From assembly GCF_024700885.2 (NCBI RefSeq), contig NZ_CP117016.1: a stretch of DNA of 64,000 bases; one strand, 5' to 3'. The position numbers and the translations under genes were made by a program. The notes under the pieces are model-generated. The model made no database searches. It was given only the letters and a program-made list of their open reading frames with translations, and was not told where the DNA came from. The stretch comes from Escherichia coli (GTDB taxonomy: Bacteria > Pseudomonadota > Gammaproteobacteria > Enterobacterales > Enterobacteriaceae). Every line of letters begins with the position of its first letter. Within the stretch, counting starts at the first letter, position 1. Positions 1 to 42,267 of the stretch are shown here, piece by piece.

Positions 1-256
1 GCATAGTGAAAACCAAAGTAAAGGTGTGCATTATGCAAAATCACAGCGTCTCTTAGAAATTAATCATGCGCACTTGCATTTAATGGAATTATTGGATGAA
101 GGGAAGAAACACAATATTTTTAAGGCAGATAGCGACCCATTGCAGGTGAATATTAATATTGCTGCGCTTGGGGGATATTATTTGATCAACCAGCATACGC
201 TTGGCCTGGTTTATCCAGTGCGCCGTAAAACCCCGTCCTTCAGGGCGGGGATATAA
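1..256 (+). CDS. 3' portion of a regulator-like gene entering from the window edge (possibly ytfA-like); last ~10 codons are encoded by the IS left-end hairpin
   Basis: Frame is open from position 2 with no upstream stop; ORF track lists 26..256; stop at 254-256 lies just after the hairpin at 231-250. Family assignment is a guess from the translated fragment. Confidence 0.35.
231..250. repeat. IS200/IS605 left-end subterminal imperfect palindrome (CCCCGTCC-TTCA-GGGCGGGG)
   Basis: 8-bp stem with one T-G mismatch and TTCA loop, read directly from sequence. Confidence 0.6.
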
Positions 257-271
257 GGCGCGGTTTTCCAC

Positions 272-703
272 CTAACCAGGTGTTTGCTGTTGTTCAATGT
301 ATTGACGGATGGCGGATATTGGCGCACCTCCGCAGCTACTGGCAAAATAGCCAGGACTCCACAAAACGCCTTTGTAGTAATACCTGACTGCAATATCTGG
401 TCGATCTCGTCGCAGTAACCTACTCGATACGCCTTTGAGGCTGTTTACCAGACTGGATATCGCCAGTTTGGGAGGATAGTTAATTAACAAATGGACGTGA
501 TCTGGTTCGCCATCCATTTCAACCAGTTCAGCTTCAAAATCAGCACATACCTTTGAAAAGTAAGTGCGTAGTTTTTCTTTCGCGTCATGGTCAAAAATCT
601 GGCGTCGGTATTTGGTGACAAAGACCAGGTGAACATGCATCAGGAAAACACAATGCTTTCCACGCCGGATATCGGTTTCTTTTTTCACAGACCAAAGTAT
701 CAT
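272..703 (-). CDS. tnpA: IS200-like Y1 (HUH) transposase TnpA
   Basis: 143-aa ORF with HVH motif (DHVHLLINYPP), KYRR motif and C-terminal catalytic-type Tyr (IRQYIEQQ); size typical of IS200 TnpA. Confidence 0.85.
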   Translation of the reverse strand: MILWSVKKETDIRRGKHCVFLMHVHLVFVTKYRRQIFDHDAKEKLRTYFSKVCADFEAELVEMDGEPDHVHLLINYPPKLAISSLVNSLKGVSSRLLRRDRPDIAVRYYYKGVLWSPGYFASSCGGAPISAIRQYIEQQQTPG

Positions 704-710
704 TTGACCT

Positions 711-1919
711 GTGAAACGATTACAGGCATTTAAATTCCAGTTAAGACCAGGTGGTCAACAGGAGTGTGAAATGAGGCGCTTCGCAGGCGCATGTCGTTTC
801 GTTTTCAATCGTGCTCTGGCGCTTCAGAATGAGAATCATGAGGCCGGTAATAAATACATCCCTTACGGGAAAATGGCTTCCTGGTTGGTTGAGTGGAAAA
901 ATGCCACTGAAACGCAATGGCTTAAAGATTCTCCCTCACAGCCATTGCAACAGTCACTGAAAGACCTTGAGCGGGCTTACAAAAACTTCTTCCGGAAGCG
1001 GGCTGCTTTTCCCCGATTCAAAAAGCGGGGACAGAATGATGCATTCCGCTACCCGCAGGGCGTTAAGCTCGATCAGGAAAACAGCCGTATTTTTCTGCCG
1101 AAACTTGGCTGGATGCGCTACCGGAACAGCCGTCAGGTCACGGGTGTTGTAAAAAATGTCACTGTCAGCCAGTCCTGCGGTAAGTGGTACATCAGTATTC
1201 AGACAGAAAGTGAAGTATCAACTCCGGATCACCCTTCAGCATCAATGGTCGGGCTGGATGCTGGCGTGGCTAAACTCGCCACGCTGTCAGATGGCACAGT
1301 CTTTGAGCCTGTAAACAGTTTTCAGAAAAACCAGAAGACGCTGGCGAGACTTCAGCGACAGTTAAGCCGCAAGGTCAAATTCAGCAACAACTGGCAGAAG
1401 CAGAAACGCAAAATACAGCGACTGCATTCCTGTATCGCAAATATCCGCAGGGACTACCTTCACAAAGTCACAACGACCGTCAGCAAAAACCACGCAATGA
1501 TAGTCATTGAGGATTTGAAGGTCAGCAACATGTCAAAGTCAGCAGCGGGTACGGTCAGCCAGCCGGGGCGCAATGTCCGGGCAAAATCAGGTTTAAACCG
1601 TTCGATACTGGATCAGGGCTGGTATGAAATGCGCCGCCAGCTTGAGTACAAGCAGCTCTGGCGTGGCGGTCAGGTGCTTGCTGTTCCGCCAGCGTACACA
1701 AGCCAGCGTTGCGCGTGCTGTGGTCATACAGCGAAAGAAAATCGCCTGTCACAAAGTAAATTCAGATGCCAGGCATGTGGATATACAGCGAACGCTGATG
1801 TAAATGGCGCTCGTAACATTTTAGCGGCGGGGCACGCCGTTCTTGCCTGTGGAGAGATGGTGCAGTCAGGCCGCTCGTTGAAGCAGGAACCCACCGAAAT
1901 GATTCAGGCGACAGCCTGA
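711..1919 (+). CDS. tnpB: TnpB (OrfB) RNA-guided endonuclease homolog, IS605/IS1341 type
   Basis: 402-aa ORF with RuvC-I (GLDAGV), RuvC-II (IVIEDLKV), Cys-rich zinc finger (CACCGH...CQACGY) and RuvC-III ([10 protein letters not shown]) motifs, all apparently intact. Confidence 0.9.
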
Positions 1920-1975
1920 ACGTAGCAGGGATCCACGTCCTTCAGGGCGTGGAGGATGTCAACATATCAGTATGG
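1780..1975 (+). ncRNA. Predicted omega-RNA (reRNA) scaffold plus flank-derived guide for TnpB (inferred, not demonstrated)
   Basis: By analogy with characterised TnpB systems, where the guide RNA derives from the tnpB 3' end and right end; the RE hairpin at 1932-1953 lies in this span. Confidence 0.25.
1932..1953. repeat. IS200/IS605 right-end subterminal imperfect palindrome (TCCACGTCC-TTCA-GGGCGTGGA)
   Basis: 9-bp stem with one T-G mismatch at the same relative position as in the left-end hairpin, same TTCA loop. Confidence 0.6.
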
Positions 1976-2053
1976 TTTCCCCCCAGGCACTGGAAGCCAG
2001 ACGTAAGGTCATCAAAGAGACGCTCCTTAGCTGGCTTTTGGTTGATTCTTCAT

Positions 2054-2728
2054 CTACCGCGCACGAATAAAACTGCCATCCGGCTGGCGGGTAAACAGGA
2101 CCTGTTGATTATTCCCCGTATCAATGGTTAAGCCCGTCACCACGCCGCTGGCGTTCTGGCGGATTTTCACCATCTGCCCGTTTTGCAAATTACTCAGCGG
2201 CTTACCCGCGCCTTCTACCTGCGCCATTGCATAGACATCGGTAGCGGGCAGTCCGTGGTCGCGGAACAGCTGCGCCATCGTTTTACCGGGTTCGACACGA
2301 TAGGAGCGCCATTGATTATCAATTCCGCTATCTGGCTGGAATGGTTGCGTTTGGGTGGTTTGCGGCTGCTCTTCTGGCTGGCCTTCCTGTATAGGTTCTG
2401 GAGCGAGCGGAGCCACCTGATCAGGATCATTTTGTGGCGTGACTAATTGCGCCCGCAGCTGTTCTTCTGTCGGTGGTTGTGATTGCGACTGAATATCTAA
2501 CTGTGCTTCACGCGTCACCACCGGCGCGTTGGGCGTATCATCAGATGGAAGCAGAAATCCGACCACCAATACAATGGCGGCAATAATGATCCCCCGACGA
2601 TGCATCTGCGGCAGCGGGTCCATGAAGCGAAAATTGTCCGGCGCGTGCCAGACTTTCTCCAGGGTTGGTTTTAGTTCAAAGCGCCCGGGCATGGTTTCCT
2701 CCTGCTCCGCGTCTTGTTCCTCAATCAT
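2054..2728 (-). CDS. ytfB: YtfB-like OapA-domain membrane protein (cell-division associated)
   Basis: 224-aa ORF with N-terminal TM segment, Pro/Gln-rich linker and C-terminal OapA-like domain; position next to fklB matches the E. coli gene order. Confidence 0.8.
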
Positions 2729-2909
2729 AGCCTATGAATATGCTAACGCTATGATGTCCGTGGTAAACCCGCCTTTATTATATTCATACGGGATATTGCT
2801 ATTGTTTCTTTTTCCCCGGGATTTGTCATCATTCCCGCGACAAAGTTTTACCCAAAGAAGTGTGGCTGATATGCTGCCCGCTACTTTATACCCTAAGAAA
2901 GGAAATACG

Positions 2910-3530
2910 ATGACCACCCCAACTTTTGACACCATCGAAGCGCAAGCAAGCTACGGCATTGGTTTGCAGGTAGGGCAACAACTGAGTGAATCTGGCCTGG
3001 AAGGGCTGCTGCCAGAAGCACTGGTTGCAGGCATTGCCGATGCGCTGGAAGGCAAACATCCGGCTGTTCCGGTTGATGTGGTGCACCGCGCGCTGCGTGA
3101 AATCCACGAACGCGCCGATGCCGTTCGTCGTCAGCGTTTCCAGGCGATGGCTGCTGAAGGTGTGAAATACCTGGAAGAAAACGCCAAAAAAGAAGGTGTA
3201 AATAGCACCGAATCTGGCCTGCAATTCCGCGTGATCAACCAGGGCGAAGGCGCAATTCCGGCACGTACCGACCGCGTTCGTGTTCATTACACCGGAAAAC
3301 TGATCGACGGCACCGTGTTTGACAGCTCCGTCGCTCGCGGCGAGCCCGCTGAATTCCCGGTTAACGGCGTGATCCCTGGCTGGATTGAAGCACTGACTCT
3401 GATGCCGGTAGGTTCTAAATGGGAACTGACTATCCCGCAGGAACTGGCATATGGCGAGCGTGGCGCAGGCGCGTCCATCCCTCCGTTCAGCACCCTGGTG
3501 TTTGAAGTCGAACTGCTGGAAATCCTCTAA
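2910..3530 (+). CDS. fklB: FKBP-type peptidyl-prolyl cis-trans isomerase FklB
   Basis: Start chosen at internal ATG ([20 protein letters not shown]...) 127 codons into the 2529..3530 ORF, giving the expected 206 aa; purine-rich RBS upstream. Confidence 0.9.
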
Positions 3531-10541: not shown

Positions 10542-10730
10542 CAGGGACATCCTTTTATCATCGGGAATACGAAAGAAAAGGGAGAATAAACGTCTTACTT
10601 ATAGAACAGTGAAGAATGCCACAATTTTACGCTTTGAAAATGATGACACTATCACAGTTGGCGCATTCATTAACGATAGGGTATAAGTAAAACAATAAGT
10701 TAACACCGCTCACAGAGACGAGGTGGAGAA

Positions 10731-15174: not shown

Positions 15175-15349
15175 ATCTTATCCGACCTTTCAGGCCAGAT
15201 CCTCGGAAGGGGAAGTTGATTAATTTGTGTGAAATACACATTGAAAGCCGATTCGAAGAAAGTGAACCGGCATTTTCAGTGGCTAGTATAGCGTAAGGTA
15301 CTGTAAAGCCGCCAGAGGGTTAAAATTCAGACTGCTGATAAATGAAAAA

Positions 15350-24907: not shown

Positions 24908-24988
24908 CCGCCGGATAAGGCATTCACGCCGCATCCGGCGGTTGTGCGAGATGCCTGATGCGACGCTGTTGTGTCTTATCTGGCGCAC
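24908..24988. repeat. REP/BIME palindromic repeat cluster
   Basis: GCCGGATAAGGC...GCCGCATCCGGC and GCCTGATGCGACGC units between ytfQ and ytfR. Confidence 0.5.
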
Positions 24989-31133: not shown

Positions 31134-31245
31134 ATGCCGGATAAAGCGTTTACGCCGCATCCGGCATTTGAGCATAGTGCCTGATGCGACGCTTGATGCG
31201 TCTTATCAGGCCTACAGGTGCACCGTATCCGGCAAACCATACTCA
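31134..31245. repeat. REP/BIME palindromic repeat cluster
   Basis: Several GCCGGATAAAGCGTTTACGCCGCATCCGGCA and GCCTGATGCGACGC units between mpl and yjgA. Confidence 0.5.
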
Positions 31246-41999: not shown

Positions 42000-42267
42000 T
42001 CGCCATAGATGCTACGAATATTATTGGATTCTCCTTATTATTTGCGGCGCTTTTTTCACTTACCGGAGGTTATATGGAACCTGATCCCACGCCTCTCCCT
42101 CGACGGAGATTAAAACTTTTCCGGTAAGCCCGTCTTTTCACGGCGTTACCGGATGCGTAAGGCCGTGACGTTTTAACGTCCCTGCTCAGCTTTATTACCT
42201 TCAGGTAAGGCTTCGCCACGCCTGAAGACATTTCTGTACTGTTTCAGACAGTGCGGAGGGACTCCTT
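42000..42267 (+). promoter_or_regulatory. mgtA 5' leader (Mg2+/proline-responsive attenuator region), extent approximate
   Basis: Long untranslated leader containing the Pro-rich leader ORF mgtL immediately upstream of mgtA. Confidence 0.55.
42074..42127 (+). CDS. mgtL: mgtA leader peptide MgtL ([17 protein letters not shown])
   Basis: 17-codon Pro-rich ORF with GGAGG RBS, inside the mgtA leader. Confidence 0.8.

Follow-up and report, generated by a model that had tools for sequence, protein, structure and literature searches.

A probable omega-RNA scaffold with a predicted flank-supplied guide at the tnpB end of IS609 in Escherichia coli

A well-described counterpart of the locus analysed here is ISDra2, whose TnpB is programmed by an RNA lying over the 3′ end of tnpB and the right end of the element, with approximately 16 nt of flank as guide; its transposon-adjacent motif (TAM), TTGAT, precedes the left end (Karvelis et al. 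2021, PMC8612924). A model of retention or homing has been derived from ISDra2 (PMC8612924) and from Geobacillus elements (bioRxiv 10.1101/2023.03.14.532601). Some natural TnpBs were inactive on testing, such as that of Helicobacter pylori IS608 (Meers et al., bioRxiv 10.1101/2023.03.14.532601).

Several families of RNA bear on the comparison. The guide RNA of IS607 TnpBs has RAGATH-18 as its kink-turn core (Ren et al. 2024, PMC11061315), and kink-turns of this type have so far been presented as a hallmark of IS607 TnpB guide RNAs located outside the gene. A 2015 paper (PMC4615843) tied the HgcC and sot RNAs to the 3′ ends of tnpB genes and also reports, from RNA-seq of E. coli K-12, transcripts that run over the tnpB 3′ end. 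A 2026 report (PMC12781874, with Tables S1–S3) describes a 207-nt ‘IS609 omega-RNA scaffold’ for a metagenomic IS609-type TnpB with a TTAT-flanked target; TTAT served there as the TAM, and this TnpB, assayed for trans-cleavage, was not the best performer. PMC4615843 and PMC12781874 were the only direct work on the guide RNA of E. coli IS609/insQ found in a literature search.

The window, that is, the whole 64,000-nucleotide stretch of E. coli DNA analysed, holds in its first 2.3 kb the 5′ part of ytfA, an IS200/IS605 element, the 3′ part of ytfA and ytfB (minus strand), in that order. The features of the element and its left border were as follows.

211–214, plus strand: TTAT, the TAM and target tetranucleotide directly 5′ of the left end, from the empty-site comparison
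215–1962, plus strand: complete IS609 (IS200/IS605 family), 1748 bp, in the TetR-type gene ytfA and adjoining ytfB
231–250, plus strand: left-end subterminal hairpin, CCCCGTCC-TTCA-GGGCGGGG, read from the sequence
272–703, minus strand: tnpA, intact Y1 (HUH) transposase of 143 aa (Pfam Y1_Tnp, E = 2e-43)
711–1919, plus strand: tnpB/insQ, intact RNA-guided endonuclease of 402 aa (Pfam domains and match to ISDra2 TnpB)

The element was identified as IS609 from its near-identity to annotated copies and from its layout, in which tnpA and tnpB diverge and each end bears a hairpin. A megablast search of 5,426 complete E. coli genomes, using a 2.3-kb query made up of the element and its flanks on both the ytfA and ytfB sides, recovered copies annotated as IS609 or IS200/IS605 family that were 97–100 % identical to the window element, with tnpA labelled by RefSeq as ‘IS200/IS605-like element IS609 family transposase’. 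At least 80 % of the query was covered in 1,699 of these genomes. Other IS609 sites in E. coli were ydcL/ydcO, yedK and a position near yidH, and several other chromosomal copies carry a dead tnpA. For a sequence 100 % identical to the window copy (strain 1190, NZ_CP023386.1), RefSeq annotates an intact tnpA, insQ under the product name ‘RNA-guided endonuclease InsQ/TnpB family protein’ and, for the TetR gene, a pseudogene in two fragments; no RNA gene is annotated there.

Both proteins were found to be complete. The Pfam match to tnpA spans profile positions 1–121 of 121, and the identical sequence is an intact CDS in RefSeq (WP_000604902.1). An intact tnpB running into a right-end hairpin had been described in the first-pass annotation and was borne out, with the gene at 711–1919 followed by the hairpin at 1932–1953 and the product carrying the Pfam domains OrfB_IS605, Cas12f1-like TNB and HTH_OrfB_IS605. 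The ISDra2 TnpB structures 8BF8, 8EXA and 8H1J matched residues 3–376 (E = 5e-54), so that the two proteins are homologous over nearly their full length. The RuvC residues D183, E267 and D363 were invariant in an alignment with nine relatives of down to 39 % identity (alignment A1), as were the zinc-finger cysteines C334, C337, C353 and C356. The protein is thus full-length with both the RuvC D-E-D triad and the zinc-finger cysteines, as in active forms of TnpB.

The ends of the element were placed by comparison with the empty site in ABU 83972 (L001) and with three other IS609 insertion sites. With a slash marking each junction, the empty site reads ...GGCCTGGTTTAT/CACATCAGTATGG..., giving TTTAT/CACATCAG... 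at the joint, and the occupied site in the window reads ...GGTTTAT/CCAGTG...(element)...GGAGGATGTCAA/CATATCAGTATGG.... This sets the left end at 215 and the right end at 1962 (...GGAGGATGTCAA). The three other insertion sites shared the same sequence through ...GGAGGATGTCAA and diverged beyond it. No target duplication was found at the element junctions when the window was compared with the empty site and the other insertion sites. Of eight IS609-type copies, six had TTAT directly before the left end and two had TTAC.

Conservation across the right boundary was measured over 88 distinct loci. The last twelve element positions (GGAGGAUGUCAA) carried 1.1–2.0 bits each, and flank positions +1 to +25 carried 0.00–0.07 bits each. 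Conservation therefore ends at the boundary and unconserved flank follows, in agreement with the earlier proposal that the guide is specified by the flank beyond the element end; a drop of this kind is the signature that would be expected of a scaffold joined to a flank-supplied guide. Since conservation falls exactly after 1962, the guide is predicted as follows.

1963–1982, plus strand: predicted guide of 16 nt, CATATCAGTATGGTTT, ending at 1978, or of as many as 20 nt, ending at 1982; the flank directly past the boundary

The guide had been expected at about 1960–1980, which was right to within 3 nt, the boundary at 1962 in the empty-site comparison giving a start of 1963. The 3′ part of the interrupted ytfA opens with the guide bases at 1963–1978/1982 (CATATCAGTATGGTTTCCCC), and the 3′ TetR fragment in RefSeq begins at the same base, 1963.

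The predicted target occurs in nature, with an uninterrupted ytfA site in 3,242 E. coli genomes. Joining TTAT to the guide side gave a sequence 100 % identical over 100 nt to the uninterrupted sites in H91–H93. The TAM at the left end and the flank at the right end together rebuild the donor joint, which is the uninterrupted ytfA site, and programming against the empty donor site, as originally suggested, therefore holds at the level of sequence. Within the whole window, no other match to the guide with fewer than three mismatches was found, and neither of the two sites with three mismatches was preceded by TTAT. At guide position 3, the window differs by C/T from the empty site of ABU 83972; an escape mutation was considered and rejected in favour of ordinary polymorphism, because empty sites with the exact sequence of the window exist.

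The source of the RNA was examined from the surrounding signals. No sigma-70-like promoter was found on the plus strand within or upstream of the scaffold, and the tnpB mRNA was therefore assumed to be the source; the negative result is itself uninformative because the ISDra2 RNA is known to be processed from the tnpB mRNA. No intrinsic terminator was found past the right end at 1955–2000.

A single-sequence fold of 1780–1961 was just mildly better than those of shuffled sequences (z = −2.6), and comparative evidence was therefore used. The relatives of tnpB comprised 90 loci with 38–93 % protein identity from many phyla, made up of plasmid loci (L005–L014) and 80 loci from one genome per species. 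RNAalifold on a MAFFT alignment of 27 of the 3′ regions predicted a helix at 1824–1829/1835–1840 with many compensatory changes, located in the codons for A-A-G-H-A-V, together with an invariant stem CCUGU/GCAGG enclosing a covarying inner stem, and the right-end hairpin. From a second MAFFT alignment (A3) of 16 sequences, including three published scaffolds, with a specified structure of 32 pairs, we built the covariance model R1. The resulting parts of the putative RNA were as follows.

1816–1962, plus strand: conserved core of the putative omega-RNA scaffold, 147 nt (R1, full-length match, 165.2 bits)
1825–1839, plus strand: helix 1 (1825–1829/1835–1839), wholly within the tnpB coding sequence, from covariation
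1846–1889, plus strand: RAGATH-18-like kink-turn hairpin (CCUGUGGAG...CGUUGAAGCAGGAA), within the coding sequence (Rfam RF03064, 29.5 bits)
1894–1929, plus strand: variable middle hairpin (1894–1895/1928–1929 and 1899–1909/1914–1923), from covariation
1932–1953, plus strand: right-end hairpin UCCACGUCC-UUCA-GGGCGUGGA, from covariation of helix 7
1951–1962, plus strand: terminal block GGAGGAUGUCAA at the 3′ end, nearly invariant, where the scaffold joins the guide, from information content over 88 loci

The scaffold core consists of the last 104 nt of tnpB and 43 nt of the right end. In A3, 92.3 % of cells were paired, against 41–47 % when the partners were slid by one to three columns. Double changes occurred at 18 of the 32 pairs (3–10 in the slid controls), and the covariation score was 0.369 (0.04–0.11 in the slid controls). 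None of 500 column shuffles reached these observed values, except that two of 500 reached the count of further pair types.

On the window, R1 scored 165 bits (E = 1e-44) at 1816–1962, and all 90 related loci gave a full-length match on the coding strand of tnpB, at the 3′ end of the gene; these loci came from Proteobacteria, Acidobacteria, Firmicutes, Cyanobacteria-related lineages, Actinobacteria and others. In the alignment of the 90 loci fitted to R1, 94.6 % of cells were paired against 46–52 % in slid controls, 30 of 32 pairs showed compensatory changes, including those of helices wholly within the coding sequence, and the covariation score was 0.433 against 0.05–0.08. An alignment fitted to R1 is biased towards the structure, so the result from A3, a MAFFT alignment independent of R1, is important. 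The feature at 1816–1962 is far beyond chance.

Support was spread over the individual helices. In helix 1, all five pairs were compensatory and 98.7 % of cells were paired in 90 sequences; in helix 3, also within the coding sequence, all three pairs were compensatory. The kink-turn hairpin had a near-invariant outer stem and a covarying inner stem. The middle hairpin, which includes the tnpB stop codon (1917–1919), differed in length from lineage to lineage, with compensatory changes at eight of eight pairs in helix 5 and two of two in helix 6. Helix 7, the right-end hairpin, was paired in 94.6 % of cells with all seven pairs compensatory.

The first-pass annotation had placed the omega-RNA at 1780–1975. 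A covarying scaffold over the tnpB 3′ end and right end was recovered there, and both limits required correction: the core starts at approximately 1816, and an end at 1975 shortens the guide. The start at 1780 was without structural support. A helix at 1788–1814, seen in the single-sequence fold, was rejected as only 61.9 % of cells were paired in 27 relatives and many pairs were broken, and the same 27 relatives showed no structural conservation 5′ of 1816. A long-range closing helix at 1816–1821/1954–1959 is tentative and was left out of R1; it was paired in 91.4 % of cells with one-sided changes only, because its 3′ side is nearly invariant. As 1788–1814 is not conserved and the closing helix is tentative, the conserved scaffold core begins at about 1816.

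The scaffold was then compared with catalogued RNAs. No Rfam family reached its gathering score in positions 1–3000, nor in the relatives. The three best sub-threshold matches in 1–3000 were all to families of RNAs at tnpB 3′ ends.

1846–1889: RAGATH-18 (RF03064), 29.5 bits against a gathering score of 44.9 (E = 0.0085, model positions 1–71)
1852–1975: HgcC (RF00062), 24.6 bits against 50
1792–1953: sot0042 (RF02656), 17.6 bits against 88, with only the terminal hairpin aligning well

The relatives behaved alike, scoring 31.8–34.2 bits on RAGATH-18 (with matches in L060, L028 and L012) and up to 37.4 bits on HgcC at the same relative place, all below threshold. In the window and in the relatives, the near-hits were exclusively to TnpB-associated families. 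For RAGATH-18, the kink-turn consensus CCUGUGGAG...CGAUGAAGCAGGAA was matched almost base for base at 1846–1889; the score falls below the gathering score because the distal hairpin of the IS609 RNA is 17 nt long rather than approximately 44 nt. The IS609 motif also lies inside tnpB in an element with a Y1 TnpA, unlike the IS607 (serine-recombinase) reRNA of Ren et al., which lies outside the coding sequence. With HgcC and sot0042, found with IS1341-type tnpB (PMC4615843), the RNA shares a terminal hairpin with a UUCA-type loop, a GGAGGA.GUCA tail and the position at the tnpB 3′ end; its upstream helices differ, and the hosts of HgcC and sot0042 are archaeal.

The published 207-nt IS609 scaffold aligned to 1756–1962 with 83 % identity and the same 3′ end, GGAGGAUGUCAA. 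It is another allele whose in-stem differences from the window are compensatory, its guide is synthetic, and its 5′ end is a design choice approximately 60 nt upstream of the conserved core. The locus resembles ISDra2 in arrangement, with the RNA over the tnpB 3′ end and right end followed by a flank guide of approximately 16 nt (a likeness of layout), and in having a TAM that precedes the left end and, as predicted target, the donor joint. It is set apart from ISDra2 by its TAM (TTAT rather than TTGAT), by a tnpA divergent from tnpB and by a scaffold whose kink-turn hairpin is like that of RAGATH-18 and whose 3′ end is like that of HgcC.

Positions 1816–1962 are therefore very probably the omega-RNA (right-end RNA) scaffold of IS609 TnpB, with 1963 to approximately 1978–1982 as its guide. 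The boundaries, the motif, the covarying scaffold, the sharp end of conservation, the intact catalytic residues and an exact natural empty-site target were all observed at this locus. From other TnpB systems, we infer transcription, processing, RNP formation, cleavage and retention in IS609. The RNA would most likely arise from the tnpB transcript, or from read-through of tnpB, and then be trimmed and bound by TnpB. TnpA would excise IS609 as single-stranded DNA, leaving the flanks rejoined as TTAT/CATATCAGTATGGTTT.... TnpB with its RNA would then recognize TTAT as the adjacent motif, pair the guide with the rejoined flank and cut the joint, and repair by recombination with a sister chromosome still carrying IS609 would restore the element. 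The occupied site would be spared, because the bases before the target are ...GTCAA and not TTAT.

An unlikely alternative is that the structured RNA is a relic, or a sotRNA-type sense-overlapping regulator of tnpB or tnpA, and that the TnpB–RNA pair is inactive as a nuclease in E. coli. The original description of sotRNAs presented them as functional non-coding RNAs that affect growth (PMC4615843), and two further reports (bioRxiv 10.1101/2023.03.14.532601; PMC11844463) give little or no activity for many natural TnpBs. In those chromosomal IS609 copies whose tnpA is dead, retention would be idle. The window copy, however, has tnpA and both ends intact, and its TnpB retains the zinc finger and every catalytic residue; all 90 loci conserve the scaffold together with the protein, and the conservation boundary falls exactly where a guide must begin.

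We consider it very improbable that there is no functional RNA, the conserved sequence being just the 3′ coding end of tnpB followed by the right-end DNA hairpin and cleavage site of TnpA, each conserved for its own purpose. Of the 147 nt of the core, 104 are coding, and, as established for IS608, TnpA of the IS200/IS605 family normally acts on a right-end hairpin and a ...TCAA end of this kind. The left-end hairpin at 231–250 has nearly the same sequence as that at 1932–1953, and R1 itself gave a weak match at 188–251, to its right-end hairpin part. The right-end hairpin is presumably also the TnpA recognition hairpin in DNA, and its covariation is equally accounted for by the requirement of TnpA for a DNA hairpin. 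By contrast, helix 1, helix 3 and the kink-turn stem are located 60–130 nt into the element and in coding sequence, and helices 1 and 3 keep their pairing through many double substitutions. Neither coding constraint nor a TnpA DNA hairpin accounts for the covariation of these three, and the excess of pairing over the slid controls is predicted by neither coding nor TnpA binding. The module also matches RAGATH-18, a proven core of TnpB guide RNA (PMC11061315).

Domestication of the pair as a TldR-like RNA-guided repressor of ytfA/ytfB, rather than a transposon nuclease, has a documented parallel in enterobacterial TnpB-derived transcription factors (PMC10705468) and an insertion present in 1,699 of 5,426 E. 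coli genomes, but is negligibly probable given that the guide matches only its own flank, which lacks the TAM when occupied; membership of the TldRs (nuclease-dead TnpB-derived repressors) was rejected since the RuvC triad is intact in a full-length protein of 402 aa and tnpA and both transposon ends are present.

As an omega-RNA and its nuclease, the locus is a textbook TnpB arrangement in a well-known insertion sequence, real but ordinary. Earlier publications cover the concept and the element, and even a scaffold of the IS609 type, and tnpB is already annotated as an RNA-guided endonuclease. Only two points are mildly new: a very widespread scaffold class lacks an Rfam family of its own, and a RAGATH-18-like module sits within the coding region of a tnpB of IS605 type. 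It is possible, though we hold it at somewhat less than even, that the IS609-clade scaffold represents an uncatalogued and very widespread class of omega-RNA combining a RAGATH-18-type kink-turn and an HgcC-type 3′ end in the coding sequence of IS605-type tnpB. If these resemblances reflected common descent, the guide RNAs of IS605, IS607 and archaeal IS1341 elements would share one ancestral core, and the three separate families in Rfam would be fragments of one superfamily.

Beyond correct annotation, the result matters little. The coordinates (scaffold 1816–1962, guide from 1963, TAM TTAT) would help to annotate approximately one-third of complete E. coli genomes, as insQ is annotated without a guide RNA in RefSeq and no Rfam family scores above threshold. 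The repurposing of the locus as a programmable nuclease, raised in the first-pass annotation, is not new, because an IS609-type TnpB and scaffold have already been purified and assayed (PMC12781874). The native target, TTAT followed by CATATCAGTATGGTTTCCCC, is defined and is uninterrupted in other E. coli, so that a simple and fully native test of retention or homing would be possible in the organism in which most TnpB assays have already been run.

The disruption of ytfA by the IS609 copy in the window was common, with the disrupted allele present in ~31% of complete E. coli genomes (1699 of 5426, matching at least 80% of a 2.3-kb query of the element plus flanks). In the window, IS609 splits this gene for a TetR/AcrR-family regulator into two parts. 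In genomes without the insertion, as in the uninterrupted ABU 83972 locus, full-length ytfA and ytfB overlap at their 3' ends.

1-214, part of ytfA on one side of IS609
1963-2070, part of ytfA on the other side

The window copy of IS609 retained an intact tnpA. Other chromosomal copies, located at ydcL/ydcO, at yedK and next to yidH, carried an internal stop or frameshift in tnpA, called as a pseudogene in RefSeq, together with an intact tnpB/insQ and a scaffold (predicted omega-RNA core) nearly identical to that of the window. Therefore, tnpB appears to be longer-lived than tnpA in several lineages.

L002, 369-794, tnpA pseudogene
L003, 368-793, tnpA pseudogene
L004, 363-793, tnpA pseudogene

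Among the plasmid-borne relatives from Salmonella, Xylella and Klebsiella, only ~80–95 bp separated the left-end hairpin from the downstream tnpB, which starts at 701. These are LE-tnpB-RE derivatives without tnpA, and the full scaffold was kept.

L005, left end at ~617
L007, left end at ~606
L008, left end at ~621

A RAGATH-18-like kink-turn hairpin was found within the coding sequence of IS605-type (Y1 TnpA) tnpB, in the window and at three related loci; none of the four matches reached the Rfam gathering score. RAGATH-18 has been presented as characteristic of IS607 TnpB guide RNAs, which are situated outside the gene (PMC11061315) rather than inside the coding sequence as here.

Window, 1846-1889, RAGATH-18-like hairpin
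L060, 1654-1696, the same
L028, 1927-1970, the same
L012, 1842-1882, the same

The right-end hairpin section of the scaffold covariance model also weakly matched window 188-251 (+) (13 bits, E = 0.04); this is the left-end hairpin, a near-copy of the right-end hairpin in sequence. On an mcr plasmid (L010), the tnpB element was followed ~300 bp downstream, on the opposite strand, by a second, weak full-model match (2280-2369, -; 23 bits, E = 2e-4), which could represent a right-end fragment, either degenerate or solo.

In the rest of the window, six Rfam matches exceeded the gathering score, at 10542-10664, 15236-15293, 24909-24985, 31135-31212, 42059-42174 and 61210-61404. These were ES239 sRNA, STnc450, two REP-derived naRNA4 copies, a magnesium (Mg-II) riboswitch and Ysr276. 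Each is an ordinary feature of enterobacteria.
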